In this document: piece after piece, positions 9,601 to 63,227 of the stretch
Position numbering within the stretch: the first letter of the stretch is position 1
Layout of the letters: every line of letters starts with the position of its first letter
DNA from: Nitrospirota bacterium
GTDB taxonomy: Bacteria > Nitrospirota > UBA9217
NCBI GenBank assembly: GCA_963818475.1
Contig: CAWFSF010000006.1
Span: forward strand, 2,080,001-2,144,000
Length of the DNA: 64,000 bases
Reading direction: 5' to 3'
Program-made: the position numbers and the translations under genes
Notes under the pieces: generated by a model
What the model was told of the DNA's origin: nothing
What the model saw: the letters and a program-made list of their open reading frames with translations, nothing else
The model's database searches: none

Positions 9601-11116
9601 TCCGCAGCTCATAGTTGTTCTCCGCGGTAATCAGCGTCCCGCTCGTGTAGGCGTCCCCGTTCAGGGAGGTCTCCACCATTTCCAGATCGGCATCCGTCAC
9701 CGAGATGATCGGGCTGAGGTCCGTATTATAGTAGATGCCTTTTGCAATGCCGGCCACGGAGATCGCAGGCGGGGTCTTGTCAACGGTAAATGCAATTTCT
9801 TTCACGCTGCTGTTTCCGGCGGTGTCGGTCGCGGTGACCTTCAGAAGGTAATTCCCTTCCACGCTTATCGGAAGTTGAGCATAGGATATGCCGTTCAGCG
9901 TAATCTCGTTGAATGCAAGATTTTCATCCTGAACGGTAATGACCGGCTGGACGTCGGAAGGATAGTACACATTGTTCGATATGCCGCTGACCGTGATTCT
10001 CGGGGCAACGTCGTCCACTGCCGCGGCGTAAACGATAACGCCGGAGCTCTCGTTTCCATGGGCGTCGTAAGCGGTTATCCTGACCGGTGATGCCTGGCCC
10101 AGAGCGAGCCCGGACATTTCAACGCCGGTTGAGGCGGCATTCACAATGTCGCTTACCCGGACGCCGGAGGCGTTATAAACGCGGTATCCTGCGGTATCCG
10201 AAGACGGCGAAGGAAGCCAGGACAGTACTGCCGTGCCGCTCTCGTCCCCGGCTTTGTCAACAGCGTGAACATTGGTAACCTCGGATGGCGCAGTATTGAT
10301 GGCAAGATCAACGGCTGTTTCGCAGAGAAGCGTGGTCCCCGCATTTACCGACTGAACCAATACCGCATTGAGCGCATGTGTTCCCGTCGAATTGTCCAAT
10401 TCATACGCAGTTCCGAGAGAAAGTTTTGCCGTGGTCAATGCAGCCGTTGCGTCCTCGCCCGACAGTCCGATCAGGTTCGGCGCTTGCGTATAGCACTTCA
10501 AATCCACGGTGGCCCCCGTATTATTCTCGACGGGATAAACAGTGCTCCCCTCAAGCAAGGCGACATCGACAAGAGATATAACGATCTTCTCGGCTGCCGC
10601 CTGGCTGCCGGCGTTGATCTGAAAACGGGCGACGGTACCGCTGCCTGATGGCAGTGCGGCTCCGTTGGTCTGGCCCAGCGTGTATAACGCGGAACCATTC
10701 TGAAGTATTTCATTGTCCATCACGAGGATCCCGTGGGATCCTTTCGAATTCCAGAAGAAGTCACCGACTCCTGAGCGGCTGGTTGTGGCCGGACCGACGA
10801 TGAGCGGCGAGGAAACCGAAATGTCCCCCGGCTGGCCTTGGGCAGTATCCGAAACCGGCGCTACCGTGGATCCGGGCGCGCTTACGTTCAGCCGGAACTG
10901 GATGGCGCCCAGGCCTTCGGCAGGGATGCCCTCGACCACAACATCGGCGTAAAAGCTCTCTCCGGGCGTTACCTTGGAAGCGGACGGAACGACCTTGATA
11001 CCGGCTGCCGACGCTGTTCCCGCCATACAGCACAGCGCGAACGCAGCCAGGCAGGACGTCAGCAGGAGAGTTCCCGCTGTTCCGGACAATCGTGCGATCG
11101 GTGATTTACTGAACAT
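6656..11116 (-). CDS. Secreted scaffold: cohesin-like, PASTA, FN3, tandem Ig-like repeats, C-terminal domain (1486 aa)
   Basis: GGAGG RBS before ATG 11116; signal peptide; VTPGESFYADVVVEG..LGAIQFRL..GSGTVARFQI (cohesin-like); APNLIGLS..AVLVQS..AG (PASTA); repeated DxTxPxT..SG..EYRIDGGxW..H.I.YYS.D. Confidence 0.85.
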   Translation of the reverse strand: MFSKSPIARLSGTAGTLLLTSCLAAFALCCMAGTASAAGIKVVPSASKVTPGESFYADVVVEGIPAEGLGAIQFRLNVSAPGSTVAPVSDTAQGQPGDISVSSPLIVGPATTSRSGVGDFFWNSKGSHGILVMDNEILQNGSALYTLGQTNGAALPSGSGTVARFQINAGSQAAAEKIVISLVDVALLEGSTVYPVENNTGATVDLKCYTQAPNLIGLSGEDATAALTTAKLSLGTAYELDNSTGTHALNAVLVQSVNAGTTLLCETAVDLAINTAPSEVTNVHAVDKAGDESGTAVLSWLPSPSSDTAGYRVYNASGVRVSDIVNAASTGVEMSGLALGQASPVRITAYDAHGNESSGVIVYAAAVDDVAPRITVSGISNNVYYPSDVQPVITVQDENLAFNEITLNGISYAQLPISVEGNYLLKVTATDTAGNSSVKEIAFTVDKTPPAISVAGIAKGIYYNTDLSPIISVTDADLEMVETSLNGDAYTSGTLITAENNYELRIQARDKAGNSLSEVYAFFIDKTRPTSTMTIGSPTFESNGLLYVAGATPLTLAGSDPGTIMSGVDKLEYRTNEAAWNVYQTPAALAGMSDGPLTLDYRAVDRATNTEEYHTLAVTLDTTVPVTTLASSEPRYIGPDGSVYVTQNTSFTLSTVDALSGVAMAEFKLDAGPWITAAPFWIPAEGSHTILYHSRDNVANSEPDKTFAAIVDNTPPLTTITTNGQQFTAADGKLYITDGTTVTLAAADNLSGIAATEYRIDGGAWTTYSPFAILTEGTHTIDYYSKDNVSNAETFKTLAVLADKTPPVTTIMTGEPKYTAADGKLYVTGSTTFILSATDNISGAALTEYRIDGGEWTTYAPFTIASEGMHSIDYYSRDNVLNTETFKTLAVIVDNAAPVSTVTVGVPQYPSEGKLYVSSSTGVTITAVDAVSGVSKVEYSIDGGPWSAYTTMFTLSSYNEGTRTIRYRSVDNLDNRGDIEELAVILDKTAPQTSISASDPLIEGVINTVSPSTSFSLMPADALSGVRTAAYRINNGAWQVYSGSFSLAGMKAGQYTLAYRATDNVLNEEAETSITVRLIIMEMEKKTAADSIILVGVESDNSDLAQKQADLQMLNRLLTSLNLTYTVTETVDDFTIALRSGRYNTYILIDVKDPLIGGEIRESVFSGDGLIFIKTKPNADPFLDDAFGLKFSGKTTSDNLTITLQESPVSIEGSLRATGKSIVSAITSTTAQMFGSVLDKKDVYPAVVFNQYERGKVLLYTFDLLNADDQSLASALLIESLNFVRPAAQTSSALGSAPIRITVTNSTEPVEMKMIESLPYGATVDTVVPRVTPVDDTLTWQKSMTANERAGFGYYLNLPDAAGSYLTKTELAYNNNGFFRTYGQYELMLTVQNSSGEQLGMVLADLRALAVKTVSDADRVAKAIDLLMLVDTNAGTRRVAEDNIKLILQAIEEVRMLSIDAPALRTGLDELLKVWERKWYLLELIN

Positions 11117-12101
11117 CGGTCCTCCCGTATTCCTTCGAGAATTTCGAAAAATCACGAACATCCACTTTGCCTCCCGTGTCAGCCACGAAATCATAATCCG
11201 GGTTGTAGATGCCGTCATCGCGCGTGGTCCTGTATTGGGCCTTGAATGCTGCAAAGTCCTGGTCGTCGACCTTCCCATCAAGGTTGCTATCGGCAAAGAA
11301 GCCCGGCACCGGACCGACAATCGAAACGAGCGAGCTGTTCTGCGGCGCTTTCCTGTAATGGACCAGGGTGGCAAGATTTCCTGCCCGATAGATGCGCAGC
11401 GTGATCGTTTCATTACCCGCTACAATACTATTCGAGCCGTCGTCACCGAAGAGATTGTTCAGGTCCAGCATGCCTTCCGGAGAGACCGCTCCGTCACCGA
11501 CAAATGCGCTGATCGGATACAGGGAAGCCTCCTCTTCAAGGACGACCAGATCGCCTAAACCGGGCTCGGCTGCCGTGTCTGAGGGCCGGATATATACGGG
11601 AAAAGTCACGAGATCATTTGCAAGTGCCTGAACCATGCCGTTCACGGGACGATACAGTACAATGTTCGAGGCGGTGGTTACCTGCTGGAGCGCCGAGTAG
11701 CTGACGCTGCCGGGATTCAGCGAATCTCTCGTAACGGTCCTGACAGAATAGGTTGTCGCAGGCAGAACGCCCGACACGCGAACCTTGACGATCCCCTTTT
11801 CCCGTGCTGCCTGCGCAGCCTTGCTGATCGCCGCCGGCATCGGCGTAATGAGTATTCCTTCGGTCAACCGCTGCTGCAGAGAATTATCCGCATACACCTC
11901 TACCGACGGATCGGCAACGACATCGGTCATCCAGATTACGGAAAAAGAGGAAGGTGTGACATCGCTGACACGGACAGCGCTGGTTTCAGGAACAGCGTAA
12001 ACCGGCGATGCACACATACAAAATGCCAGATAAAGAATGAGGCTTGCGAAATGAAAATTGAAGGACTCCCCTATTCTCTGCTTGCATGTCAATCTTTTCA
12101 C
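11106..12101 (-). CDS. Secreted FN3-like protein with C-terminal dockerin-like domain
   Basis: GTG start overlapping the upstream stop; duplicated Ca-loops ADSNLDGKVDDQDF and YDFVADTGGKVDVRDF. Confidence 0.85.
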   Translation of the reverse strand: MKRLTCKQRIGESFNFHFASLILYLAFCMCASPVYAVPETSAVRVSDVTPSSFSVIWMTDVVADPSVEVYADNSLQQRLTEGILITPMPAAISKAAQAAREKGIVKVRVSGVLPATTYSVRTVTRDSLNPGSVSYSALQQVTTASNIVLYRPVNGMVQALANDLVTFPVYIRPSDTAAEPGLGDLVVLEEEASLYPISAFVGDGAVSPEGMLDLNNLFGDDGSNSIVAGNETITLRIYRAGNLATLVHYRKAPQNSSLVSIVGPVPGFFADSNLDGKVDDQDFAAFKAQYRTTRDDGIYNPDYDFVADTGGKVDVRDFSKFSKEYGRTDVQ

Positions 12102-18207: not shown

Positions 18208-19086
18208 CTATTTCTTCTTTCTTAGTTCCGTTTCGATAATTGTCTCAAAACCATGCAAACTGCGGTCCTTCAGCTGCTTACCGTTTACAAAAATGGTAGG
18301 TGTGCCGTGCACGCCTGCTTGATTGCCCTCGGCAAGATCCCGGCTGATCAGTCCCTGAACCGCCGGGCCGTTCATGTCTTTACCGAACTTATCAAGATCA
18401 AGGCTCAGTTCCTTGGCGATATCCATAAATTTTGTTTCGCTCAGGCCTGACAAATTTTCAAATATCTTATGATGGTACTCCCAGAACCTTCCCTGTTTAT
18501 GAGCCGCAAGAGCTGCGGTTGCAGCCGTACGCGAAAGCTTGTGCATCGGAAGCGGAAAATTCTTTTCGACCAGTTTGACCTCTTTGGGATATTTCTCCAG
18601 CACCTGCTGGAGTAGCGGATCGAGCCGCGCGCAGAATGGTCATTGGTAATCGCTGAAGATCGCTATGGTCACCGGCGCGCTCTCAGGCCCTTTAAAAGCC
18701 AGTCCGCTCAAGTCGAATTTCTGCAGTACTTCCACACTTATGAGTCTGATCGTTTTTGTGGTACTGCTTGAAAGCATAAGAGTGTTTGCATTCGCCTGGG
18801 AGGAGTTAGAAATCCGATCGAACGATTTATCCACCGGGATTTTGCTCAGCACTTTGTCCTCGGCAATGGAATAGACCGTTATTTCTCCGGGTGTGAGAAT
18901 ATATGCCGTCTGCCCGTCTGTCGATAACGCCGTATCAAGCGGCGCGGCTTCTACGGTGAGCTGCTTTTTGAGCGTCCATTCCACTTCTGCAAAAACAAAC
19001 TGCGGCAGGATTAAAAGCACAATAACGGCAACTAAGAGTATGTTCAGGCTATTCATTCTATTTTTTAATGATCCTGTAGACTGCAC
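18208..19086 (-). CDS. dsbA: DsbA-family thiol:disulfide oxidoreductase, selenoprotein (UxxC)
   Basis: Track ORFs 18640..19086 and 18208..18603 are in frame across TGA 18640-18642: FSDYQ-U-PFCARL; cis-Pro GTPT; signal peptide. Confidence 0.88.
18595..18612 (-). promoter_or_regulatory. Candidate SECIS hairpin of dsbA
   Basis: CUCCAGC-AGGU-GCUGGAG starting 27 nt after the UGA. Confidence 0.6.
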
Positions 19087-19175
19087 AACAACTCCTCCGA
19101 ATGTTTATTAAGTTCAAACAACACCACACGGCATACAATAATATCCTTAACATCCCTAGTCACTTGAAACGAAAT

Positions 19176-19889
19176 TCACTTCTTGACGCCCTTAATTTTG
19201 GATTGATTCAATATGTGATATATTTTTTCTCGGTTTTTTTCCTCGATTACTTCAGCCCGTAAACAAACATGTTCAAAAACAGAACGCCCTGCTTCGTCCT
19301 TTATCTCGACTGAAGCGCCGCTGTCTATTAACAATTTGACAATTTTATAATTGCACATCGCGGTAGCATGCATTAGTGGCGTCCATCCGTATGAACCTTG
19401 CAAGTTGACATTATGACCATTAGAAATAAGACTCTGAATCAGGTTGATGTCTCGGCCGTAAACAGCTTTTATCAGCTCTGGTTCTTTAGCAGGATCGAAT
19501 GATGCAGGTAAAGTCTCTAGCAACCGTGCCTTATCCAGCAATTTTACTATTGCCTGCTTTACGTCTGGGCTAGCAGTTTTCGGGTTAACGCATATATAGT
19601 TATATACGGTGAATCCTTTATTATCTATAACATTTACTTTTCCGCCATTGTTCAACAGAATCCTAGTTATTTCCAGATCACACTTAGCTGAGGCATGCAT
19701 AAGCGGAGTCGACCCATATTTATCTTTTAAATTTACATTCACACCCATTTCTAGTGCTTTTTCAACGTATTTGACATTACCTTTATCTATTGCTTCAAAC
19801 AATTCGGCGTCTTTACCTGCCCAACTCATGTTAGAGCTCCCTAGGCACATTATTATTAGCACCTGATATAATATTTTCTTCAAATACAT
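19176..19889 (-). CDS. Exported ankyrin-repeat protein (candidate immunity protein)
   Basis: GSTPLMHA and GWTPLMHA ankyrin motifs in two duplicated halves; signal peptide; GAGGAG RBS; AT-rich. Confidence 0.9.
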   Translation of the reverse strand: MYLKKILYQVLIIMCLGSSNMSWAGKDAELFEAIDKGNVKYVEKALEMGVNVNLKDKYGSTPLMHASAKCDLEITRILLNNGGKVNVIDNKGFTVYNYICVNPKTASPDVKQAIVKLLDKARLLETLPASFDPAKEPELIKAVYGRDINLIQSLISNGHNVNLQGSYGWTPLMHATAMCNYKIVKLLIDSGASVEIKDEAGRSVFEHVCLRAEVIEEKNREKIYHILNQSKIKGVKK

Positions 19890-19941
19890 TTATTAATCTC
19901 CTCGTTTATCATCTTTAGATTGTTTATATCTTTAATTAAAT

Positions 19942-22900
19942 TTAAAAACTGCTCAAACCGTCTTGTCCGGTTGATGGACTGGATCTACTGGTCGGATCAG
20001 AAGCCTCCAATGCGTCTATGCTCGCGGCTAATTCTCGAGGCGTTTCAAAACCGTACATGTCATCGGCATCGACATCTTCTCCGACAACAGTCATAATACA
20101 ATCTGATGCCCATGCAGCACAGGTATTGGTGATAGTCCAGTAACTTGGTGTATTGATATAACTAATCAAAGCCTGCTTTTCATCAGCAAACAGCATGTAG
20201 TATCTATTGTGATTGCCCGAGGATGACTCATAATTAACCCTGACATCGCTTCCGTCATTATTATCCCCTCTTTGGATGACAAGCCAGTGATCGTCAGGCC
20301 GACAGCCCATAGGTTGTTACAAGACCGGACGTAACGTCTGTCACTGTAATCCACGCATGACCATCAGTATAAGACGGATCTATTTCATTTTGTAATGATG
20401 AGTGAACACCTAGAACAGTGTCATAAACGAGAACGTTTAGTTTGACTCTATTGCCACATTCAGCCTCAATTGTCTTATAATCTGTTTTACTTGATGAGAC
20501 CGTATCGAAGGTCACAGTTATTGTTTCTCCTGACCCAGACGCGCCCGAACTTCCGCTCCAACTAGGTTTCCCATCTGGCCATGGAGCACTGGAAGGTGTT
20601 TTTGCAGCAGTGAAAGTAACTATTGATCCTTTCATTATAAAAATAGTTTTAGTAGTATCCGGACTATCAGTATCCGATGTTTTTCCACGACCACTAATAG
20701 AATCTATCTTTACAACATACGTTTGAAGCATATACATCGGCTGGTCGTTAAAGCAATTGCAGTTGGCATATACAGAGACATCGTAAACGCCTGGCGATGA
20801 ATATGAATGATTTATAGTCGTGCTTGTCGTTGAATCTCCTGATCCGTCTCCAAAGTCCCAGAAATAAGTAATATCACAGTTCCCAGTAGCAGTTACAGAA
20901 TAATTGACCGTTTGGTCTATTGGTACGACATCCGTCTCCTTTCCATCTGCATAAGCTGATGTAATTGTTAAACTTATCGTTTCGCACGTTTTATTCCCGA
21001 AAAGGTCCGCCTTACAAACGCCTGGATTTGGCGTATTCTGATTGCAGCATTCGCCTTCCGCCTTGAGATTACACTCGCTGCACTGCTGCGGATTGAGATC
21101 GAGTAAGCTGTTTGCGGACAGTGATAACGATCCCGCCTTTAAACTGCTAGTCTGAGTAGTCTGAGCGTCCGCACACGCAACGACTTCGACGGTATCCGAA
21201 GGCTGCGCATCGGTGCAATCGCAGTTCACGTAGACTGTGGCATTGTAGATGCGCGCCGATGGCAGTATAGGTATGCGATATGGACGAGGTTGTCGACATA
21301 TCACCCGATCCGTCGCCGAAATCCCAGAAGTACGTGAAGTTGCAATTTCCATCCGGAATTGCCGTGAAGCTCACCGGCTGATTGGTATACACGACCGCCG
21401 ATTTATTAAGATTAACGAGAAGACTGACGCTCGTTAAAACGACCGGCTCGCACGTTCCCGCTTTACAGATTCCATCAATATTGCAGCATGTCGCAGGATC
21501 ATCCGGCACAGGCACTTTAACCCCATCCTGGCACTGATTACACATGTCATCCGGGATGGGCCCTGTGATCGGCGTGTTCTCGCACCCATTCGCTCCGCAT
21601 GAATCCTCGGTGCACGGGTCACCGTCGTCGCAATCGAGCGGATAGGACTGGCAATCACCGTTTTCGCACCAGTTCACGGTGCACGGGTCGTTGTCTTCAC
21701 AATCTTTGGGCGTATTGACGCACCCGTTAGGTCCGCAAGAATCATCCGTGCACGGATCGCCGTCGTCGCAATCCAACGGGTAGGACTGGCAACCTCCGTT
21801 TTCGCACCAGTTCACGGTGCATGGGTCATTGTCTTCACAATCTTTGGGAGCGTTGACGCACCCATTGGGTCCGCAAGAATCATCCGTGCATGGATCGCCA
21901 TCGTCGCAATCCAGCGGATATGACTCGCAGCCGTTCGCGCCGCACCAATCTACCGTGCAGGGATCGCCGTCTTCGCAGTCCAGAGGATAAGACTGACAGC
22001 CTTCCCCCTCGCACCAATTGACCGTGCACGGGTCACCGTCTTCACAGTCGCTGGGCGTGTTGACACAGCTTCCCGATTGGCAGGAATCTGTCGTGCACGC
22101 GTTGCCATCATCGCAATCTTTTGGTGTGCTGATGCAGCCGCCGGACCCGCAGGAATCATCGGTGCACGGATTGCCGTCGTCGCAGTCAAGAGGATAAGAC
22201 TGGCATCCGCCGTTTTCGCACCAGTCAACCGTGCACGGATCGCCGTCTTCGCAGTCCAGAGGATAGGACTGACAACCGCCGTTTTCGCACCAGTTAACCG
22301 TACACCCGTCTCCATCATCGCAGTCAATGGATGTGTTGATACAGCTTCCCGACTGACAAGAATCGTCTGTGCACGCGTTGCCGTCATCGCAATCTTTGGG
22401 TGTGTTGATGCAGCCGCCGGACCCGCAGGAATCATCGGTGCATGGATTGCCGTCGTCGCAATCCAACGGATAAGACTGGCATCCGCCGTTTTCGCACCAG
22501 TCGACCGAGCACGGATCGCCGTCTTCGCAGTCGAGGGGATAGGACTGGCAACCCCCATTTTCACACCAGTTCACCGTGCATCCGTCTCCGTCTTCACAAT
22601 CGATGGACGTGTTGATACAGAGGCCGTCCTCGCAGGAATCATTGGTGCAGGAATTGCCGTCGTCGCAATCCCTGGGAGTGTTGATGCAGCCTCCGGACCC
22701 ACAGGAATCATCGGTGCACGGATTGCCGTCGTCGCAATCCAACGGATAAGACTGGCATCCGCCGTTTTCGCACCAGTTGACCGAGCAGGGATCTCCGTCT
22801 TCGCAGTCAAGGGGATAGGACTGGCAACCGCCGTTTTCGCACCAGTTAACTGTGCACCCGTCTCCGTCATCGCAGTCAAGGGATGTATTGATACAGCTTC

Positions 22901-25900
22901 CCGAGACGCATGAATCAGTCGTGCACGCATTGCCGTCATCGCAATCTCTGGGTGTATTGATGCAGCCGCCAGCCCCGCAGGAATCATCGGTGCACGGATT
23001 GCCGTCGTCGCAATCCAGAGGATACGACTGGCAGCCGTCTTCGCACCAGTTCACTGTGCACGGGTCGCCGCCGTCGCAATCTATGGGAGTATTGACACAC
23101 CCTCCGGAACCGCACGAATCGTCCGTGCACCCGTTGCCGTCGTCGCAATCCAGAGGATAGGATTGGCAGCCGTCTTCGCACCAGTTCACTGTGCACGGGT
23201 CGCCGCCGTCGCACACTACAGGCTCGTGGGTACATGCACCGTTTGAACAGGAGTCATCCGTACATGAGTTATTGTCATCGCAGTTCATGCAGCCGCAGTC
23301 ACCTGTCGGCAGAGGACCGGGCTGTCCAGGAGCACCCCCGCCGCTTCCGCCTGAACTACCGCCACCGCCACCGTACCACCCGCCGCCGCTGCCGCCACCG
23401 CTACCACCGTGCCGCCACCGCTTGTCGGACAGGTCGTTGGTACGCCGACATTCCCGCTGGTGCTCGCGGTTGCTGTCGCTCCTGACACAGGACATGTTTC
23501 CGCCGTACCGGATGCCGTTATGGGGAATGAGGAAACACATCCTGCTCCGTATCCGCGTACTTCTTCAAAAAGCGAGGACAAAGCTGAAGCAGCGAACAAT
23601 TGAAGTGAAGAATCGGGGTTACATGCGTCATTTCCTGCATCACGGAGGTTTAAGTTCGCGGCCACTGTTTGCCGTTTAGTGACCCTGAAGGGCATCGTTA
23701 TCTTCTGTTGCGCCCCAATTCTGGTCGGTATCGACGAAGTGAAGACTTCTACGTCGTAGTCCAAGAAGCTGGTCGGGAAAGTTATTTTAACGTCAACTAC
23801 AGCTATCAGCCCGTAGTTGGTGATGGTAAATTCGCCGTTAAAGACCTGCCCAGGCAGCATTTCGGGAAGATTAATGACTGGAGGCTCAGTGACGAGCACG
23901 GGTAACGGTACATTGGTAGCAAATGTCTGAGTGATTACGATCTCGTATTTGTCCTGTATTGTCGTCGGCACCACACTCCAGGTGACGTCGACAAGCTTTA
24001 CTTCCAAAATTATGGAGGCAGTGGTTGTTATTCCCGGACTTACGACAAATGTCCCGGAATAAGGCAAATGTCCCGGCGGAGGCGTCACATTAAAGGAATA
24101 TCTTCCCTCGGGTATGTCATTCTTCATGACGGTGCCGTCTGTACCGCTCTTTACGGTATAGATAAGATCCGTGAGCAGTTGATTCTGGAATGTGATCGTG
24201 GCATCGGGCATTTTTTCCGCCAGCATATTCTGCACGGTAAAATATACGCTGCCGACCGCGTTGCTCGATACGGTCACCTGGATGTGATACGTATAGGGTA
24301 TATGATTATCGGAGTAAATAACGATTTGATCGTCATAAACTCCTTGCGCAAGGGTGCTGGACGGCACTGAACATGAAGCTGACCGACTTGGAAGAACCCG
24401 GCAGAATATCGCCGATGGTTTTGTCCTGTGTAAGACTCATCCATGATGTGGACGGACCTTCGATCCGCGCATTTTTGAGGGTGTCCTCTCCCGTATTCGA
24501 GATCGTGAAGGTGGCAATCTTCTGGTCTCCCCGCACCATACCGGTATCGATATAGGACGGACTCGTGCTGATGATCGGGCTGAGGCTGACCATGATGATC
24601 GAAGCATTGAGCGTGACGGAGAGTCCTTCAGCGGTCGTTGCCTTCATTGTCGCCCAACCGGTATCAGGCGCGGACGTATCCGCCGTGAGACGAAGCGTGA
24701 TCGACTGCTTTTCCCCTGCGGTAAGCGTTGTGTCGCCGTTGTTGATAACTCCCGCGACGATGCCGCTGCTCGATGTGGTTTCAAACGCCAGACCGGTGAG
24801 AGCGCCGCCGCCGAAGTTGCTGATCGTGACCGGGATGTCGAGACTGCGGTTTCTCGCCAGTCTGACAGTCGCCGAGGTCGGATTGATCGGAGATTCCGGC
24901 TATGGAGAACGTGGCCTGGACGGTCCTGTCCTTGACATCGGGGTGCACCGCCCAGAGGCTGTAGGTGCCTGCCTCATTGCTTCCCGGCGTAAAGGTGTAG
25001 CTGAAATTGCCGGAGGCATCGGTCGTGACGGTGTAGAACCGGTCGAAGCCGTTCACGGAAATGCCGAGCTTCACCGGAACGTTCGGAACAAGCGCCCCCT
25101 CACCCCCGCCCTCTCCCGCGAGGGTAGAGGGAGTGTTAGAGATAGCCGAGCCGTTGATGATAACCGGCTGGGCCATGGCATAGAAGGTTTTATCAGGCGC
25201 TGCCACGGCGCGATAAGCAGTCTCCTGGATATAGGACTCCACTGAGCCTTTCATACCCGGCGCCGTGACCTGGTCGGACTTCGAATAATGATAATAGGTG
25301 TTCTCGATCACTGCCTCGATGATCACCTTATAAGGGGCGGAAACAGGCACGGGCAGCAGGATCGGATCGGTCATGAAGCTTTCGTTCGGGTTGATCCGCG
25401 CAACCGCGTATCCCGCACCGTTCACGATAGCAGCGCCTACGCGCTGGTCCAGGTAACCGGTGGACAGGAGGTTTCCATCCTGGTCCTTGAGATTGATCCT
25501 GACCTTTGTCGTCTTCGTATTGTTTTCGCTCGTGACGAGCTCCATCTGGCTCGTGCCGATGTTGTTCACCTTGAGCCGCACCTTCGCGTCCGTGTTCCGA
25601 ACAAGCGGATCATTGAAGATCTCCATGCTCGAACTCGATCCCTGGACCTCTGCCGACGTGGTCCTGGAGAGCTTAATGGCAACGCCGGGCGACGGCGACC
25701 AATTTGCCTGGATGAATACGGACACCGGAGAAAGAGCGTCCGCTGTCGTGGCCGCAACCTTTTCCAGCTGAAGCGTGGTGTTGGCGGCGAGGCTGAACGG
25801 TCCCAGGATCGTGCTTGCAGGAGCAGTACCCACCTTGACGTCGATTGAATCAATGCTCAGGCCAAAGCCAGAAGCTAATGATATGATGATGGGCACGGTT

Positions 25901-28900
25901 TCGAGCACACCCCTCCTGAGGGTAGTCCCCTCTTTCAGGCCGAGCGTTAGATCGGGTAGTGCTACCTCTTTGACCGGGCTTTCATTCTCCAGATTGTCCA
26001 CTGCGGAGACGCCGTAGGTCGTGTTCGACGCACCATAGCCATCGGTATAGGAGAGATCCAATACCGGGTACGGCGTAACGCGGCTTCCGTTCCGGTAGAT
26101 ATGATAGCCTGCAATAGTGCCGTCCTGCGGCGACTGCCAGGTGATCGTGGGAGCAGCATCATCGATACGCTGGAGCACCAGATTTCTTACCGGAGACACC
26201 GGGAAATCGATCTCCTTGATCTCAGACAGCAGGCCTTCATTCCCGAGGCTGTCCACGGCGGCAACTGCATAGAAGCGATAGGTTTTCGAAGGCGAAGCGT
26301 CCACTGCCGTCGAGATCGGGACCTTTGCCACGGGCGTGAGACCGGTTGATGAGGTAAACGCGGCGTTCGACCGGTACAGATGATAGCCCTTGAGAGGCAG
26401 TACGGATTGAGAATCGACCACTGCGTCCCAAGTCGCGGAGACGCCGCCGCTTCCGAGAGAAAGCGATAAATTCTGAGGAGCAGGAGGTCCTGTCCTGTCG
26501 GAGACTGCCTGCACTTCGGCAGAGAGCGGGCTCTCGCTTCCCATAAGGCCCACGGATGTTATTGCATAGTAGTAAGTGCCGTCATCCGGCGGCGTGTCCT
26601 GGGCCGGCGATCCTGCACTTCCGGTTATAACCTTTGTCGGGGACGATTCATTCTCCGCTCTGCGGTAGACGTTGTAGGTAATGGCAGAGCCGCCTATGTT
26701 GTTCAGCTGTTCGTACATGACCGGGTACCAGGTAAGCGTGACTGCGCCTGCCTTTTCCGATTTCGCTGCAAGGCCGTCCGGTATTCCGGGGGACGGCACC
26801 TGATCGCGGTACAGCAGGATATACCGGCCTGTAGAGACGATAGTGCCCACATTTCCGAGTGTATCTTGTGCTGAGTTCATGATGAACTCGGCCTTGCCCT
26901 CGGGCATGCTGGAGACATTGAGGGATCCCGCCCAATGAATGCCATTGTCCGTCGACGTCATGCCGCTTACGAGCGAGGTCGTTCCATCCGACCCCTTGAG
27001 GGTAATTTCAGGTGTCACGACTGAAGCTTCATTCAGGATGACGGCAACGGCAGCAGGATCGGACTTGATCTGCAAGGTCGCCGCTGGAGATTGGACTGCG
27101 GCTTCCGGTCCTTTGACGTCGATGGTGATGCCTGCCCCCTGCCCGTTCCCGCGATTTCCGACCATGTCCTTGCCCGAGAATTTGTACGTTGTCGCTCCCT
27201 GAGGGCTTTGTGCGGTGATCGTGAAGGCGCCGTCGTAGTGCGTGTCGTCCACCTTGTTCATCGTGACCACGATGGGAGAGCCTTCCTGCGGCTCGAGGCT
27301 GAAGAACGGCAGCTCCTTGAGCTTCTCGCTCACCGTGACCGCAACTTCCACGCTGCCCGGACCGACAGCCGAGTTCGGAGTTATGAGTTGTGAGTTCTGT
27401 TTGTATTGGATAGTTGCGACGGACGGCGCAGTCCCGTCCGTAGACAGTGCTGCAACATTCGATATCCCGCTCTCGTTGCCTGCGCTGTCCAAAGCCGTTA
27501 CGGCATAGTACCTGAAGCCGTCGTCTCCAGGGTTGTATTCCTTGTACTGGTACGTTATCGGAGAAGTGTTCGTCGCCGTCACCCCTGCGTCCGTCTTTGA
27601 ACTGAAGGAGGACGGACTCATATACAGGTTGTAACCTGAAGGCATCTCACCCGTCGGGCTCGTCCAGGTAAAGCGCAAAAGCCCTCCTGTCAGGACCTGT
27701 GCAGCAAGATTCTGAGGAGCGGGAGGTGCGCCGGTGTCGACCAGGATCTTGTAATCCGGCGCATAGGCGCTCTCGCCTCCGCGATGGCTCGCCTTGACTG
27801 CAAGGACATTGTCTCCTTCAACAAGTGCTATGGACGGGAAGGTGAATGTTCCCGTTCCTGTCGTACCTGCGGTCTGGGCCGTGTTGACAACGACACCGTT
27901 CACTTTAAGCGTGACGGTCGTGAAGAGCGGGGCCGTGCCCGTTGCGGTCACTATATAGCTGGGTGTCGTCTGTGTCTCGCTATGGCCCGTGATCTTCGGG
28001 GAAGCGGGCTGTGCAAGACTCACGATGACCTGTCGCGGGTCTTCGGTTGCGTTCCCTTTGCTGTCCGTTGCCCTGAGCTTGATCGTATGATTGCCGTCGG
28101 TCGCAGCAACCACATTCCAGAAGTAAGAAAGGCTGCCACCGTTCTGGGTCGCAACAACGGTGCCATCGATGGAAAGCTCCATCGAGCCCATCGTGCTTTC
28201 AACATCATACGCTGTTGCGGTGATCGTGATCGGCCCGGTGACCACCTGGCCGGTGATGATCGAGAAGGTATCGATGGCCGGTCCTGTTGAGTCGGCCAGG
28301 GGTGTCACGCTTATGCTCTGGACATCGGACCGCTCGGCGCCTGATGTGTTCAGTACCGTGACCGCGTATTGATAAGTGGTGTCGTTTGTGAGGCCCGTGG
28401 CGTTGTAGGTCGTTGCAGTCTTGGCAACATTACCGACCAGGGTCATCGTGCCGATGCTGGTCAGTTGCGCTGTCGAAGGTTTGCTGTAAATATTGTATTG
28501 CTTCACGTACGGCGAACTTACCGCGCTCCAGGAGAGTGCAGCCTTGCCGCTGCTTGTTGCGGCGGTGAGATTCGTGGGGTTCGCGAGCCGCGTTACCGCT
28601 TCGACCACAGCGCCACGGCTCTCATGACCGAGCGTGTCTTTGACCGTTATTTTGAACTTGTACTTCGTTGCGTCGGAGAGCCCCGTTTTCGTATAGGTCG
28701 CTGCCGTCTTTCCGAGCGGCGTTCCGGTGTCGTACCCTGTCCCGCCGTCCACGTACACGATATGGTCCGCGAGATCATTGGTGGAGTTAAGGCTGGCATT
28801 CCAGGTGATGGCAATGAAGTTTCCTTGCGTGTCTGCGTAATCGGCTGCCGCAGCAAGATTCGTGACATCTTCGGGAGCCTTTGTATCGGTCGGCACTGCC

Positions 28901-31900
28901 GATGCGATATTCACGGTATCGATCTGGTTCCCTGCCTGATCCACTGGCACGACTGCGAAATAGTAGGTGGTTCCCTGAGTAAGCGCCGTTGCGGTGTAGG
29001 TCCTGGTGCCGTTGTTCACCGTGCCGATGGGTATCATGCCGGCGACATCGCCAAAGACCGAGAGAGATTGGTAGACGACGTAGTAGCCGACGTCGGGCGT
29101 CTCGGGATAGGCCGTCCACGACAAGGTTGCCTCAGTGCCGTTGCCGCTGCCGTCCGCAATGAGCACACCGGGGCCGAGCGGCGCGGGAGGAGCGGTATCG
29201 TACAGAATATCGACCGTCCTGGTCGTGGTGTTTCCGAGCGCGTCGGCCGCGGTGAAGACATAGCGATTCGTAATACTCGATATCAGGTTTGCGTCATAGG
29301 ACCAGGTGTCGCTGATATCGGCCGGGCCGTAAAGCTGCGTGTCGCCGAGCTTCACGATACAGCCCGGCTCCTTCGTTCCGGTCAGGGTCTGCGTTGCCAC
29401 CGACGACGGGTTCTGATAGGTGTTCACGGTGAACGTCGGCGGAGTAGTGTCGAGCACGATGGCCGCGGTCGTGGGAACCGAATTGTTCCCTGCCGCGTCG
29501 CGGGCCGTGATGGAGAGTGCATTCGTGCCCTCGGAGAGGGGGTAGCTGTAGCTCCATGGTTCACCCGTTGTCGGGTTCGGATCTGCAGCAACCCGCTGAG
29601 TCCCATTGATGTAGATGGCTGAGCCGAGTTCTCTGGCGCCTTTCAGGATCTGGTTCCGGTTGTTGGTGGGCGTTGTGACGTTATCCAGGCCTGGTGATGC
29701 AGGCGGTGTTGTGTCGAGGACAAAGGTGCCGGTCGCGGCACTGGTCATCACGTTCCCGGCTATGTCTTGGGCTCCCGATACATTTACGGTATAGGTGCCG
29801 TCGCCAGTCCCGCTGCTGAACGTATGACTGCCGTTCCAAGTCTTGTTGTAGTTGCTCCAGCTTTTGCCAGTCCAAACTGGCGTTATGGTACAGAAGATGA
29901 GACAAGAAGACTTCACAAATGAAACCGACGGGTCGATGGTTGTGGACATCGGCTCATTGAATGTGATACTGAACTGCACGCTCTCGGTCTTGTGCGGGCT
30001 TGTGGGGCTCATGGTGAGAGACTGGACCGTGGGCAGTCCTGTATCCAGGGTGAAGCTGAAGGTAAGCGTTATCGTAGTTTCGAGCTGGTCAACGGGTTTT
30101 ATCTTGACCGTGTACACTCCGTCTCCCAAAACAGTACCTGGATCAGGCGTGAACACAATATGGCCGCCGGCTTGCGTGGTCCATGAACCGCTGATGACCG
30201 TGTTGTTCGAATACGTGACCTCATTGTTTTGGATCGACGCCTGAAGATCGACGCCTGAATTATCGTCAACCAAGACGATGTCGATTGATGCGAGCTGGTT
30301 CGTGAATCCGTTGATAGAAGGCGTTGTGGACGATATCCTCGGAGCAGTGGTGTCCCTGACAACATTCACGGTTACCGACTGACTCGGGTTGCCGGCCTCG
30401 TCCTGCGCAAAGACGACGAAAGCGTTATTCCCTTCGCTCGTGAGGTTAACGGGATAACTCCATGCACTATCACCATATGCCGCGCCGGTCTTGACATTGT
30501 TGACGAACAGGTATGAACCCGCTTCCTTCGTTCCGGCTAAGGTAATCGAACTCAGCTTCGTCGGCGTTGACTGAGGAGTGACGATTGGTGCAGCCGGAGG
30601 AAGCGTGTCCACGGTGAAGGTCATTTGCGCTGAAGGGCTCGGGTTCGCTGCCTGATCAACGGCATATGCAGTAACAGTGTTGCTTCCTTCGTCCAGTCCG
30701 GATACCGTGACGCTCCAGGTGAGGGCTGTAGGATAGGATACGGCGCCGACTGTCGCGCCTGCGCATGCGGCTATGATCTTTATTGAATCCAGGCTCTTCG
30801 TGCCGTTAATCGTCTTTGTGGTCGTGCGGCTCGGAACGAGTATGGGATCGATCGTCGGAGGCGGAGGCGGCGTGGCGTCAACCGTGAAGGTCATACTATA
30901 AGATGAACGGTTGCCCAGCAGGTCGGTCGGGTGTATCGTGGCCGTATAGGTTCCTTCGGTCATGGTATCGTCCGGTGTGAACGTTACTGCTGCAGTTGAA
31001 CCTCCGCCGGACGTGGCCCAGGTGCCCGAGGGATCGGCGCCGGATGTTTTTGTTACAGAAGCACCGGTCAGAGTTGCGTCCAGGTCGATGGTGGAGAACG
31101 GCTCACTGAGGTTGAATTTGATCGATCCGACCGATGTATTGAACAATCCATTGTTGACCGGGTCAGTGCTTAAAACATCCGGCGAACTCAGGTCGAGGGC
31201 AACGGGAACGAGGACAGCCTGACTATGGAACCCATCGGCATCCATTGCCGTGAAGCTCAGGTTGTTCATGCCAGGCTGCAGGGTATAACTCGCCTGCCAG
31301 GTAGTTTGACTGTCGAGCGGAACTATCGTTGTTCCATTCACGACGATGGCTGTTTCGGCAGGTTTGGAGCCGCTAAGCGTGATGGTCGAAGAAGTAGTCG
31401 GAGTCTGCACCGGTTCAACCGTCGGCGGCTGGATGCTGTAGGAGCGGTAGTTTTCCTGGATCTCCGTGTCCGAAAGCGCGCGGTTGTAAATGGCTACATC
31501 GTCGATTGAACCCTTATACGGCCCGTAGGTGGCAACATTGCCAAATGTTGTAGAAGCATAGACATTCTCCCGCAGGCTTAACAGTCCGGTTTTAACAAAT
31601 TGTCCGTTCAAATACAATCTAGGTTGCTTATTTTCGTACACCACCGCAATGTGATTCCAAGCGGCTAGCGATACGTTGTGGACAAGCAGAGACGGCAGAT
31701 AGCTGCTCCCATGTTCAAATACACTGATCCCGTTGGTTCCCACCGATATTCCCACTCCTGCATCGTTATTACCACCATGTGCAGGGCCAACAGCATATCG
31801 TTGAGCACTCGTGCCTGAAATACCCGAGTTGCTTTCGGAAGTAACATTGCGGGTGGCGGTAGGATATGCCCATAGCATGACAGTAAAAGTATTTGCTGCT

Positions 31901-33861
31901 CCGGCATAAGAACCGGCACCTGCCATTGCATAATCATCAACACCATCAAAACTTCCGGCATAGGTCCCGATCTTGGCGCTTGAGGTGAACGTAGCGCCGC
32001 TGTACGGCGTCGCATGGTTGCCGATGACTGATGAATCCTGCCAATCATTATCCATGTGCCATAGACCTACGAGACCTGTCTTGTTGATCCTTATTTCGCC
32101 GGACTTTGTCGCTTCGACGTTTCCGGATTTGTCCGTAGACCGGTATGAGAGCGTGTTCACTCCATCGGTGTCCAGCCCAAAGGATGACGTATACGTTACC
32201 CATGAAGTCCCGTCTAAACTATATTCGATCCTTGCAATGCCGGACCCTTCACCACCGTCCGAAGCCGTCAACGTTATGGTGACTGCGGAAGAATACCAGC
32301 CATCTTTTCCCTTGGTCTCTTTCAGGGACAGTGTCGTGATTGGAGCTGACGTATCGTGGGTGGTGAACGCGATCTGCTGCTGGCCCTTGTTTCCGACAGC
32401 GTCCGCGGGGTAAATCGTAACCAGGTAGCTATCGGAAGGAAGCGGCGTTGTGGACGGTGTGAAAATAATCGTTTTTGTTCCTGAATTCATCCACAAACCC
32501 GAAACTGCCTGGCCGTCGGAATTCTTTATTGTGGCATCCACCCTGCTTTCGTCAAGATTGATGGAGGAATAAATATCAGTCAGATTGATCGCGACCGATG
32601 TTACCGGTCTGGCCGTATCGGAATTATTCGCCGGGTACGTGCTTTCTATTACCGGCGGCATATTGTCATAGATGACCGATTTTGATACGGGAGAACTTTG
32701 TTTGAATGTTGCATCAACGGCGACGATGTTCAGGAGATTTACTCCCGGCAGGAGAGTACCGTATGTTCCTAGCCATGCTGCAGTGTTGTCGAGCGGAGCG
32801 ATTTTCTTATTGTTCACCCAGATGGAGGTGCTGATTGTCTTGCTCCCAGAGAGCGTAATGGTGCTGGTACCGACCACAGCGGGCACGGGATCGAGAATAG
32901 GAGAAGGCGGGGCTGCTGGATCACCGGGAACGGCATTGGCATGTAATGCGATTTCTTCTGGTGTGAGGGCACGTTTATAAATGGCGACTTCATCGGTGAG
33001 ACCGTTAAAATATTGAACTCCGGAAGGGTCGCGCCCAAGGTTAAGGGGGGTAGTGCTCACTTTAAGAGCCGTAATTGTTGACGTTTTCGCTTGGACAGCC
33101 TGTATCCCATTTACATACAGATTGAGTACGCCGGCGTTGAACGTAGCTGCCACGTGATTCCATGCATTCACGATAATGGGCGCGGTTGTGGTAGCAAGAT
33201 TATCATATGCTGTGCCGGTGCCGCTGATGTCTACCCGCAGATTGCCTGACGGTGCAAGCCCGAATTGGTAGGAATAATTTCCCGAGCTGCCGAACTTGCT
33301 CACGATCTGGCGGTAGTTGCCGATGTCGCCTGGTTTAATCCATGCTTCCAGCGTCATGGCCGTCGTAAGGTCCAGGCTGGCGCTGTCTGCCACTTGAATA
33401 AAACTGCTGCTCCCGTTAAAACTGACAGCCTGTGTCCCGCCGTGATTATCAGTCGTAAATGCAGGTGCATTAACAGGAGCTCCATTGTTATTATTGCCTG
33501 ATGAATCAGCCCAATCTCCATCCATGTGCCACAGACCGACAAGATCCGGGTCACCCTGGTTCTCCGGATTCACTGCCAGTGTCACCGGCTTGCCCATGTA
33601 CATGCCGTCCGCTGACGTGAATGGATAAGACACGCTCACCGGCTTGCTGTCCAGCTCGCCATGCATCCCGGTCGGAACAGCAACGCTCACCGGTTTGCTG
33701 TCCAGTTCACCGTTTACCGAAGTAGGTACGGCGACAGAGACGGGGTAGGAGATGGTATTGGCTCCCACATTGGTGACACCTGCAGGAAATAGCAGTACAT
33801 AAGAGATCAGTATGTTCAACAGGGCTCTAAATTTCATTAGTGTCCTTTGACTTTCCGTCAT
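19942..33861 (-). CDS. Giant secreted protein (~4,640 aa): 2 LamG, many Ig/FN3, Cys-rich repeats, 2 PKD, C-terminal papain-like domain; 5 apparent frameshifts
   Basis: Six track ORFs read as one continuous domain series with indels near 24890, 24368, 23410, 21252, 20301; LVGLWHMD (LamG) twice; TYFWDFGDG (PKD) twice. Confidence 0.8.
21564..23282 (-). repeat. 25 tandem coding repeats of 66-69 bp (CDDGxPCTxDxCxxGGCxxxPxD)
   Basis: Counted in translation: 23 units of 23 aa plus 2 of 22 aa; resembles the Dictyostelium CTDC repeat. Confidence 0.92.
25095..25134. repeat. REP-like element embedded in frame in the giant gene
   Basis: ccccctcacccccgccctctcccgcgagggtagaggg, same core as the intergenic copies; encodes TPSTLAGEGGGEG. 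Confidence 0.65.
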
Positions 33862-33905: not shown

Positions 33906-34001
33906 GCATTTAAATTCATTACTGCTTTGCCCACGTTAGCCCTCTCCCCACAGGGGAGAGGGTTGGGTGAGGGGATTTTCAAGATGTAACAAAGCTATTT
34001 A
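33906..34001. repeat. MITE/REP-like palindromic element, copy 2
   Basis: gcatttaaattcattactgctttgccc..ccctctcccc aca ggggagaggg..tgtaacaaagctattta. Confidence 0.7.
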
Positions 34002-35405
34002 CGATTTCAACTGCTTCGCCGGTATTTCCTTGCCGCTCGCGGTGATATAGGTCATCGTGGAACCGCCACCCATGGCCGCTTCTACCCGTACCTTCTCAAT
34101 CAGTTCCCCCTGAGCATAGATCGGTCCCATGCCGAGAGAGGCAAGCTGGAACGTCACGGATGCAGTCAGAATAGATGGATAGGCTTTAGATATGTTTATC
34201 TGGATAGAAGCGGAAGACGAGGTGTCTGTTCCAGCCAGAGTTCCCGTCGCCGTCGTAGCCGTCCCGACAGCAGGAGACGCCTTGAGCGTGATCGTAGTGT
34301 TGGCAGGAATATTTGCGCCTGCAAGGACTACCGTAATTGGATTCTGCATATTAAACGGCAGCATCATATCAGGTGACCCGTAAGAACCTTTAGGAACGGA
34401 AGGAGAGTCCACACCGCCCGCTGAAGTAATAGTGAGCGTCGGCATGTTCTGCGGAACAACGGCATAGGGATAATCAAGGGAGAAAGGGGGGGTCGTTCCA
34501 GCTGTCCGCGTGACGCTCGAAGCTTCAAGACGAATTCTACCAATACCACCAGCACCACCGAAACCCCAGCTTGAAGAACCGCCGGTGCCACCAGTAGCAG
34601 ATAGCGTGCCATTCCCGGAAATAGTATTTGCGATGAGCCTTATACCTCCGCCACTACCACCACCACCGCTGCCAGCGTATCCATTACTTTCCCCGAGTGC
34701 ACCTGTTCCCCCATTAGCAGTGATAGCGCCGGTAAGATTAATAATGCCGGACGACGCGATAACAATTGCACCGCCCCCTCCGCCACCCGCTCCACCTACT
34801 AAATTTGTGTTACCAGAACCTCCACCACCACCAGACCCTCCAATTTGAGGAAGAATCCGTTCATTTCCGTAACTGGAACCTCCTGCACCGCCCGTAGAAG
34901 AAGAATAAGTGCCACCAGTTCCACCATTTACCGCAAATCCACCACCACCGCCGCCACCCGCAGGATTACCGTTGGCTGTGTTTGGAGAAGCTCCCCAGCC
35001 ACCCCCAGGCCCCTCGCCTCTTTTGCCAGCCTGAATCACAACCCCGCCTTGTCCACCATCAAAACCGCCGGGCCCGCCAACTCCCGGAATTATATAACTA
35101 CCGCTAGAACCATTAAGATTAATGGTTCCGGCAATCGTCACGTCACCCGTAGTGAGCATCGTTACCGGAGTATTCTGCGAGTTCTTCTTGAACGTGACCG
35201 TCACTCCGGAAGGGATATTGATGGTCGTAAAGTTGAATATGCCGCTTTCCGGGATCTGCAGTACCGTATTGCTCGTCGGCGCAAATTCACCGTCCGCGCC
35301 GGTGCTGCCGCTGTCGAATGCGGCATACGCCGCACGACCGGGCAAGATGCATAGCGCCAGGATCAAGAAGCTCAACATAACCTTACTCAGTGCGTACCGT
35401 TTCAT
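33999..35405 (-). CDS. Secreted glycine-rich protein, first gene of the cluster
   Basis: AGGAGG RBS; signal peptide ending AYA; GGGGGGG, GGSGGGGG, GGGSGGGIRL segments. Confidence 0.9.
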   Translation of the reverse strand: MKRYALSKVMLSFLILALCILPGRAAYAAFDSGSTGADGEFAPTSNTVLQIPESGIFNFTTINIPSGVTVTFKKNSQNTPVTMLTTGDVTIAGTINLNGSSGSYIIPGVGGPGGFDGGQGGVVIQAGKRGEGPGGGWGASPNTANGNPAGGGGGGGFAVNGGTGGTYSSSTGGAGGSSYGNERILPQIGGSGGGGGSGNTNLVGGAGGGGGGAIVIASSGIINLTGAITANGGTGALGESNGYAGSGGGGSGGGIRLIANTISGNGTLSATGGTGGSSSWGFGGAGGIGRIRLEASSVTRTAGTTPPFSLDYPYAVVPQNMPTLTITSAGGVDSPSVPKGSYGSPDMMLPFNMQNPITVVLAGANIPANTTITLKASPAVGTATTATGTLAGTDTSSSASIQINISKAYPSILTASVTFQLASLGMGPIYAQGELIEKVRVEAAMGGGSTMTYITASGKEIPAKQLKS

Positions 35406-62692: not shown

Positions 62693-62705
62693 TTCACTCA
62701 CCTCA

Positions 62706-62745
62706 TGTGGACAAATATACAACAAGAGTGTACCTTTTGTCAACA
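62706..62745 (-). promoter_or_regulatory. sigma70 promoter inside an inverted repeat (putative operator)
   Basis: TTGACA-18-TATATT on minus; arms TGTGGACAAA / TTTGTCAACA with inner TACA/TGTA. Confidence 0.55.
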
Positions 62746-63227
62746 AGAAAAATATAAAAATTATATTTCCGTATGTTAGACAATTTATCAACAGCCAATA
62801 ACATTCCAATTAAATTTGGTACCAATATTTTATGTAATTTTGCCGCCATACCATATTTTGTGGCTCCCATCCCAAGGCATACTAGGGGGCGGATTAAGTC
62901 GCGAATTTGCGTAAAATAATTATTATGGGAGCGTAACGGTCCGATATGTCCGTAAAAATGACCGCATGGACAGCGCCGTTTATAAGCAGGCCGACACAGC
63001 ACAGCCTCTTCACCTGTTTCGCGAAAATATAATGCAGACGCTGCGATAATCCAACGAAGAGCTCTCACCTGCTCTCTCTGTTTCTCCGTCTGTTGACGAG
63101 AAGGCGAGCATCCAACTACAGACTGCATCACGTTCTGCGATTTTTCTTTCGACATCTCCGCCTCGTAATGGTATACTGCGGCCTCAATATCCGTTGACAA
63201 AATGTCCTCCACCATGATCGGAGATGT

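Follow-up and report, generated by a model that had tools for sequence, protein, structure and literature searches.

The subject of this analysis is a 64,000-nucleotide stretch of contig CAWFSF010000006.1 of a Nitrospirota bacterium (assembly GCA_963818475.1), here called the window, and in particular the 3' end of a giant gene in it, together with the small gene that follows. The giant gene, which we call the carrier, encodes a protein with a signal peptide and many repeat domains; its last codons encode a domain predicted to be a permuted NlpC/P60-like cysteine hydrolase, and the next gene encodes an ankyrin-repeat protein with the appearance of an exported protein. Toxin domain, ankyrin gene and carrier all lie on the minus strand. 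We consider it likely that the two downstream elements are a permuted NlpC/P60 toxin and its exported ankyrin immunity protein, held in a low-GC (guanine plus cytosine) cassette at the end of the carrier. The features on which the argument rests are the following.

19942..33861, minus strand: giant carrier gene of about 4,600 codons with the putative toxin at its end, seen as six open reading frames (ORFs) in different frames and recognised by its Pfam matches and signal peptide
20417..21090, minus strand: low-GC pre-toxin module made of a Cys-rich linker, a PKD domain and an Ig-like segment, which aligns with residues 3789-4043 of the metagenome protein P0031
19945..20416, minus strand: toxin domain (about 157 aa), predicted permuted NlpC/P60-like cysteine hydrolase, delimited by homologue alignments, the invariant His and Cys and the fold of a homologue model
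20299..20303, minus strand: frame break in the toxin domain, one extra C (20301) in the Trp codon of YGLWPD, where the metagenome protein P0028 is intact
19176..19889, minus strand: ankyrin-repeat protein (237 aa) with an Ank_2 match, predicted to be exported, putative immunity protein
19000..21000, no strand: low-GC island in the GC profile, which takes in the ankyrin gene as well as the toxin and its pre-toxin module

The toxin domain is divided between two overlapping ORFs of the minus strand. ORF 20294..21352 ends in ...GHAWITVTDVTSGLVTTYGLSA before its stop codon (...DPSYTDGHAWITVTDVTSGLVTTYGLSA in the longer listing), and ORF 19942..20310, in another frame, reads MGCRPDDHWLV...SDVRVNY...NRYYML...YWTITNTCAAWAS...GFETPRELAAS and is also listed as ...PDDHWLVIQRGDNNDGSDVRVNYESSSGNHNRYYMLF...YWTITNTCAAWASDCIMTVVGEDVDADDMYGFETPRELAAS.... 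The junction between them is CTG T[C]GG CCT, the surplus C being at 20301, and bridging it gives a single continuous domain with the motifs LGVHSS, GHAWI (which contains the His), YGL[W]PDDHW, SDVR, NRYY, TNTCAAWAS (which contains the Cys) and GEDVDADDMYGFETPREL, in this order. The Trp at the break is near-invariant, since it is kept in 128 of the 134 representatives that cover the core of the domain and in more than 90% of 27 aligned sequences (YGLWPDxHP). Furthermore, P0028, a protein of 1,340 aa which is 98-100% identical to the window sequence (99-100% over the toxin part), has an uninterrupted TTYGLWPDDHW. Given this intact reading and the near-invariant Trp, the removal of one base at about 20301, by which the preliminary description had restored the domain, is the correct reading. 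Whatever the origin of the frame break, an intact form of the toxin domain occurs in nature.

A word-indexed search with the domain returned 26 proteins (E 3e-42 to 3e-20), and an exhaustive HMMER search with the unaltered C-terminal piece of 122 aa returned 251 cluster representatives (50% clustering) at E <= 1e-3, with 116 reaching E <= 1e-10. Conservation was counted over 169 proteins with a domain match, pooled from both searches, among which are the 134 core-covering representatives. The His of GHAW and the Cys of T(N/T)TC are kept in 134 of 134, always with His before Cys (82 residues apart in P0002), and Asp63 (129), Pro132 (133) and Gly42 (131) are further conserved positions. Searches of the toxin domain against Pfam, NCBIfam and PDB sequences were without meaningful match; matches to DARPins in the PDB sequence searches were dismissed, as they come from a short acidic stretch.

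For the assignment of the fold we used an AlphaFold2 model of the homologue P0002 (175 aa, 54-59% identical to the window domain; predicted local distance difference test score [pLDDT] 89.6, predicted template modelling score [pTM] 0.85), aligned by VIA-align to 48,161 representative chains. In the model, His23 abuts strand 24-30 and Cys105 is the first residue of helix 105-117, the strands bearing the His preceding the Cys helix. The top match is TseH, a type VI secretion system (T6SS) effector (6v98; Z 9.4, 129 residues aligned, root-mean-square deviation 3.8), followed by YiiX (2if6, Z 7.6), the deSUMOylase DeSI-1 (2wp7, Z 6.8), Aichivirus 2A (7zv6, Z 6.2), a cysteine peptidase (3kw0, Z 5.5), MARTX RID (5xn7, Z 5.3), CLN5 (Z 4.7) and PLAAT4 (Z 4.1). 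Bar a chain of a Euglena supercomplex (rank 8, Z 4.1), every match that reaches Z 4 is a circularly permuted papain-like enzyme, and MepS and the NlpC B3 domain are found far down the list (Z 3.1 and 2.0). Because of the uniformity of this list, the toxin domain is predicted to have the circularly permuted papain-like (NlpC/P60) fold. Clusters with the TseH, IcsB_M and Lnb_N families are among the look-alikes in the ESM Atlas, and Foldseek against the PDB gave nothing at E <= 0.001. The permuted papain-like domain with His before Cys, which had been proposed from the letters of the window, is thus borne out by the conservation of both residues and by the matches of the P0002 model; of the two structure searches for a papain fold, VIA-align placed TseH first and Foldseek had Aichivirus 2A as its top match, at E 0.027 only. 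The term papain-like should not be taken to mean peptidase, because TseH and Tox-Act1, the nearest characterised relatives, are reported as phospholipases (PMC12994826).

The proteins that carry the domain, and the genes next to it, point to a toxin. A Pfam scan of 68 of the longer homologues, selected by us, found RHS domains in 5, XVIPCD in 9, an extracellular contractile injection system (eCIS) core together with PG_binding_1 in 1, LysM in 1, and giant FN3/LamG/Calx-beta architectures in 3, the remainder being mostly without a Pfam domain. XVIPCD is the secretion signal of bacteria-killing effectors of the type IV secretion system (T4SS). In P0004, P0007 and P0009 the RHS core-end motif DPxGL is directly ahead of the domain. 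Among the 169 proteins, the domain is C-terminal on a longer protein in 55, N-terminal with more than 100 residues after it in 21, and stand-alone or on a short protein in 91. Neighbours belonging to a T6SS were seen at 3 of 14 stand-alone loci that were checked: in L011 the toxin starts exactly at the end of VgrG, L021 has ClpV upstream, and L038 has TssF nearby. The preliminary description had expected the domain at the C-termini of RHS and T6SS proteins, and its appearance on RHS, XVIPCD and eCIS carriers and next to VgrG agrees with this; the contrary outcome that it had envisaged, a domain never found on other toxin carriers, does not hold. This genomic company says that the domain is a toxin, and its toxicity is put forward here on that basis.

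Two of the loci have noteworthy surroundings. In a Sedimenticolaceae metagenome-assembled genome (MAG), a stand-alone toxin gene and its lipoprotein partner (L012:4919-7432) are placed between nuoH and nuoI, inside the nuo operon. In a Desulfobacteraceae MAG, a toxin-immunity pair (L004:2157-3766) lies a few kb from a gene for a cysteine-peptidase inhibitor of the chagasin family (Inhibitor_I42) and from genes for patatin-like phospholipases.

The ankyrin ORF has an intact frame and a strong Ank_2 match (Pfam, E 6.9e-29). It starts 52 nt past the toxin stop, with GAGGAG ahead of its ATG, and its N-terminus, MYLKKILYQVLIIMCLGSSNMSWA-GKD, resembles a signal peptide, as judged by eye. A scan for promoters and terminators over 18950-20050 found nothing beyond what shuffled sequences give. 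To place this gene among the partners of the family, we surveyed the genes downstream of the toxin at 95 loci, 47 from species-representative genomes (scanned with an alignment of 10 rows) and 48 from metagenomes. A family of about 125 aa is downstream in 40 of the 95 loci, 34 of its members fitting the lipobox pattern and the others having a Cys behind a hydrophobic segment; lipoprotein-like proteins form two further families (6 and 4 loci), a membrane family also recurs (3 loci), and ankyrins with hydrophobic N-termini follow the toxin in 5 loci (L001, L002 and L049-L051) besides the window. In a maximum-likelihood tree, built in quick mode from 82 toxin domains, the labels of the downstream families are clustered, requiring 17 changes against a mean of 38.8 after shuffling, and the six ankyrin-linked toxins fall in one subclade of eight rows (Shimodaira-Hasegawa-like approximate likelihood ratio test, 81), of which the other rows are L005 and P0031. 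Seven ankyrins can be aligned end to end; they have common motifs which are not generic to the repeat, e.g., KGFTV.DY, and hydrophobic N-termini in 7 of 7, again by eye. A complex prediction with residues 1172-1340 of P0028 and the mature ankyrin gave a score of 0.60 (runs 0.59, 0.71 and 0.60) against 0.01 for the best control, with contact agreement of >= 82% and partner pLDDT of >= 84; among solved complexes 116 of 157 attain the mark for this score, as do 2 of 215 mismatched pairs, and a score of 0.60 or less belongs to just 18 of those complexes and to both passing mismatches.

A solved precedent for such a partner is Tli, a periplasmic ankyrin protein of six repeats that confers immunity to the Tle6 lipase (PMC11470151). 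With this precedent, and with the window and five further loci in one subclade, the view of the exported ankyrin as an immunity factor gains ground, and the ankyrin gene product probably protects the producer. Every recurrent downstream family consists of lipoproteins, proteins with a signal peptide or membrane proteins. Since all the recurrent immunity candidates are exported in this way, the site of action of the toxin is most likely the periplasm or envelope, as the preliminary description had supposed.

The composition of the DNA changes together with these genes. From about 21,000 to about 19,000, the GC fraction is 0.30-0.48, against 0.53-0.63 in the flanks, and it recovers in the gene after the ankyrin gene; the turn to AT-rich sequence from about 21 kb through the ankyrin gene is therefore present as first described. 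The PKD and Ig-like segment ahead of the toxin is common to P0031, P0022 and P0023, and at the border of the island PKD occurs a second time, in a copy with 43% identity to the preceding one. The start of the low-GC island at this second copy suggests that the cassette recombined into the carrier at the PKD module. Hence the 2-kb island and the duplicated module lend support to the exchanged cassette that had been proposed.

Taken as a whole, the explanation which we deem likely is the following. A giant adhesin-like surface protein, exported by Sec, would end in an interbacterial toxin domain of approximately 160 residues, in which the His on an early beta-strand (GHAW) would pair for catalysis with the Cys that opens a later helix (TNTC). 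The toxin would have its site of action in the envelope or periplasm of target cells; from the periplasmic side it may attack membrane phospholipids, hydrolysing or transferring their acyl groups. The ankyrin protein, exported to the periplasm of the producer, would bind and block the toxin and in this way confer immunity. Recombination would have placed the pre-toxin module, the toxin and the immunity gene, as one low-GC cassette, at the 3' end of the carrier, and the carrier may hand over its C-terminal domain by surface display and contact, or by release.

Several observations weigh against this explanation. In the Pfam hmmscan of the 26 members (E <= 10) the only match was a weak one to DUF6950 (9 of 26, best E 0.0069), and the Pfam TseH model (PF25218) matched neither the 26 members (E <= 10) nor the six frames of the genome (E <= 0.001). 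The same model does detect L101 and L102, TseH being found in 2 of 101 sampled Vibrionaceae-family genomes; aligning our family with these two TseH-family proteins by hhalign gave a nonsignificant E of 0.18, with GHAW and GHAG in register. In the structure list, which rests on the predicted model of a homologue, only TseH at Z 9.4 is above the background of 7-8 stated for the tool. As to the immunity protein, L005, inside the ankyrin subclade, has a CHAT/TPR protein downstream instead of an ankyrin; the verdict on the toxin-ankyrin complex is weak support only, and ankyrin complexes are abundant among solved structures. As to delivery, no member of VipB/TssC, the T6SS sheath family, was found in this genome, which is 91% complete, and we know of no route by which a giant protein exported by Sec would deliver a toxin at its C-terminus. 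As to the substrate, the LysM fusion (P0081) and the PG_binding_1 fusion (P0139) point to peptidoglycan and not to lipid. Finally, the carrier has five frame breaks in its last 5 kb and zero in its first 9 kb, which is beyond the background rate of the window. The match of the fold to permuted enzymes and the failed link to the TseH profile together determine the classification: the toxin domain is therefore classed as a family of its own within the permuted NlpC/P60 superfamily, outside the TseH family.

Besides the break in the toxin domain, the breaks in the carrier are these.

21251..21254, minus strand: GCGC, four bases too many, in the first PKD domain, where P0028 reads TAIGIYNATV
23405..23412, minus strand: break near 23,407, one base short in the Gly-rich linker, by comparison with P0028
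24355..24370, minus strand: break near 24,360, deduced from collinearity with P0031
24885..24892, minus strand: break near 24,888, deduced from collinearity with P0031

Their concentration raises the question whether the toxin gene is a genuine pseudogene, with real frameshifts in the carrier and the ankyrin gene kept as an orphan immunity gene. The insertion of GCGC, unlike the single-base events elsewhere, would fit such decay, as would the intact ankyrin ORF and the fact that the cassette, single-copy in this genome, was not found in 5 same-genus genomes (65-92% complete). Yet genes outside the carrier are interrupted as well. The essential glyS (~55,610-55,730) is split in two frames, with positions 1-368 and 372-535 of tRNA_synt_2f on either side, and a GH57 gene (~60,100) and an FGGY kinase gene (~46,306) are each split between two frames; the breaks in glyS and the FGGY kinase gene read as a single extra base outside any homopolymer. 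From these three genes it follows that the assembly (7 contigs, 91% complete, 6.2% contamination) clearly carries indel errors, and other genes that look broken there are to be read accordingly. Moreover, the 98-100% identical contig of P0028 is open over the last three breaks, i.e., over the last 1,340 codons; its ORF begins at the equivalent of 23,971 and is silent on the first two. On balance we lean towards assembly error as the cause of the breaks in the carrier, and regard genuine decay as possible, if doubtful.

If the domain is a toxin, we give close to an even chance to a Cys-His acyl hydrolase or transferase acting on membrane phospholipids. A lipid substrate is favoured because of the analogy with TseH and Tox-Act1: the permuted branch of NlpC/P60 is associated with acyl and lipid substrates, both of these proteins have phospholipase activity, and the toxicity of Tox-Act1 needs its His and Cys (PMC12994826). 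The same toxin-immunity module could instead have as its enzyme a peptidoglycan amidase or endopeptidase, like the canonical NlpC/P60 T6SS effectors of the Tae families. The LysM and PG_binding_1 fusions already mentioned speak for this, the recurrent immunity candidates, all periplasmic, would fit a cell-wall target equally well, MepS and the NlpC B3 domain do occur low in the structure list, and TseH itself was first proposed as an endopeptidase (PMC12994826). However, the matches at Z >= 4 are, with the one exception given, permuted enzymes, a group that acts on acyl or lipid substrates and to which TseH and Tox-Act1 with their phospholipase activity belong (PMC12994826), and the canonical peptidoglycan hydrolases of the superfamily have Cys before His. 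We think a cell-wall enzyme, the main alternative, rather unlikely.

It is very improbable that the C-terminal domain is a housekeeping or processing module (for self-cleavage, anchoring or maturation) beside an unrelated periplasmic ankyrin protein: the adhesin-like carrier without a recognised toxin-delivery domain and the sheath gene not found in this genome would allow it, but the domain ends RHS proteins, heads XVIPCD T4SS effectors, follows VgrG, is stand-alone in more than half of the 169 proteins and has small lipoproteins downstream at many loci, a pattern of carriers and downstream genes such as polymorphic toxins, and not processing domains, typically show.

Besides its signal peptide, the carrier has LamG, bacterial Ig and FN3 domains, 22 Dicty_CTDC Cys-rich repeats and PKD domains, and it is collinear with P0031, a metagenome protein of 4,161 aa that ends in the same toxin domain. 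Among the Pfam matches of its six ORFs there is no RHS_repeat or RHS, so it does not classify as an RHS toxin, and there is likewise no TPS/FHA, PAAR or XVIPCD element; a two-partner secretion (TPS) domain, haemagglutinin repeats, a VENN-type pre-toxin motif and CdiB, which a CdiA/CdiB system of contact-dependent inhibition would have, are absent from the Pfam matches of the carrier and flanking ORFs. The 22 tandem Cys-rich repeats (~21,500-23,300, minus strand) match the 'Dictyostelium (slime mold) repeat' Dicty_CTDC (E 6e-101), here in a bacterial surface protein. Directly upstream of the carrier is a gene for an exported Gly-rich protein of 468 aa with no Pfam match (33999-35405, minus strand), and exported bacterial-Ig proteins are encoded nearby at 36085-37557 (minus strand, 490 aa) and 6656-11413 (minus strand, 1,585 aa). 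The carrier and its exported repeat neighbours look like a surface-protein neighbourhood.

Three other places in the window deserve mention. The gene for a DsbA-like protein with a thioredoxin fold (18208-19086, minus strand) has an in-frame TGA at ~18640-18642, exactly where CxxC has its first Cys (FSDYQ-TGA-PFC). With readthrough the gene gives a full-length product of 292 aa, 59% identical over 97% of the length to homologues of about 284 aa, which at the TGA site have Cys in P0206, P0219 and P0312 and a residue called 'W' in P0201 and P0202; the only homologue with a named source, from a Desulfobacterales MAG, has 45% identity. A small hairpin is downstream of the TGA, with a fold energy that is not unusual (z -1.1). 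The product is probably a selenocysteine protein; an indel like those in other genes was considered and rejected, as the interruption is an in-frame TGA at a CxxC position. Between two TauE/SafE exporter genes lies an AIR-synthase-related ORF (40115-40861, minus strand) that has AIRS and an AIRS_C which is truncated; it could be a selenophosphate synthetase-like gene, or else one more gene shortened by an indel. A HEPN-domain ORF (61650-62120, minus strand) adjoins a Polbeta-type nucleotidyltransferase ORF (62126-62809, minus strand), the arrangement of HEPN/MNT toxin-antitoxin pairs.

The kind of system, a toxin-immunity cassette, and the fold superfamily are already known. In a narrow search of the open literature, subscription journals being outside the coverage, we found no paper describing the toxin family, and the X-Tfe domains listed in the passages of PMC6536674 consulted include canonical NLPC_P60 and not the family of this window. 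Within the libraries and the open literature searched, then, neither the sequence family nor its two kinds of immunity families (lipoprotein and ankyrin) nor the giant carrier exported by Sec is described. We tentatively propose, at somewhat less than even confidence, that they represent an unnamed, widespread family of permuted NlpC/P60 toxins with at least five delivery routes, including an undescribed class of giant Sec-exported Ig/FN3/LamG/Cys-repeat proteins with a PKD-Ig pre-toxin module, in bacteria where a T6SS was not found (this genome and genomes of the Planctomycetota-Verrucomicrobiota-Chlamydiota group), and that the clade on these carriers switched from small lipoprotein to exported ankyrin immunity. 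Permuted NlpC/P60 toxins have only recently been shown, for Tox-Act1 and TseH, to attack membrane lipids and not the cell wall (PMC12994826). To these the window family would add a large, phylogenetically broad and sequence-distinct branch with clear catalytic residues, several immunity types and many platforms. It offers a convenient system for establishing the cleavage target, for following the recruitment of lipoprotein or ankyrin solenoid immunity to one toxin, and for studying toxin delivery by a Sec-exported giant surface protein that uses neither T6SS nor T4SS nor two-partner secretion. A new domain model is justified and would give an annotation to hundreds of 'hypothetical proteins'.

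Among the known systems, the closest is TseH of Vibrio cholerae (6v98, PF25218), a T6SS effector of similar size which is the best structure match, has the same order of His and Cys with GHAW and GHAG in register, and is represented among the ESM Atlas look-alikes; in L101 and L102 it also has a small exported protein encoded downstream. It differs from the window family, which has no significant sequence similarity to it, has its own motifs YGLWPDxHP and GEDVDADDxxGFETPREL and has other immunity families, and whose member in the window is fused to a giant Sec-exported carrier instead of being T6SS cargo. The permuted papain-like architecture is shared, at Z 7.6 down to 4.1, with YiiX/YaeF (Peptidase_C92), PPPDE/DeSI-1, LRAT/PLAAT, the picornavirus 2A H-NC proteins and MARTX RID/IcsB. 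With this group there is no match at the sequence level and, except for RID and IcsB, its members are not toxins of polymorphic systems. RID and IcsB are fatty acyltransferases that act on host proteins.

Tox-Act1, a permuted NlpC/P60 phospholipase of a Salmonella T6SS, resembles our candidate as an antibacterial toxin acting in the periplasm with a permuted core; its immunity protein is membrane-associated, and its His and Cys are essential for toxicity (PMC12994826). Compared by description and not by sequence, its spacing between His and Cys is 108 (H43 and C151), against 82 in P0002 (PMC12994826). The Tle6-Tli pair of Enterobacter cloacae likewise combines an exported ankyrin immunity protein with an adjacent envelope-acting toxin, which in that case is an alpha/beta-hydrolase lipase delivered via T6SS (PMC11470151). 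Tli has six repeats and the window protein two separated Pfam ankyrin blocks, and the two are likened by type, not by homology (PMC11470151). The carrier of the window, an Ig/FN3/LamG/PKD/Cys-repeat giant without RHS, TPS/FHA, PAAR or XVIPCD, sets our system apart from the polymorphic toxins (RHS, contact-dependent inhibition [CDI] and X-Tfe), with which it has in common the C-terminal toxin, the adjacent immunity gene, the break in composition and the several delivery platforms. By the two features that mark polymorphic toxins, namely, a domain found on different delivery proteins and a downstream gene that varies with the toxin clade, the family described here would be counted among them, as far as comparison of sequences can tell.

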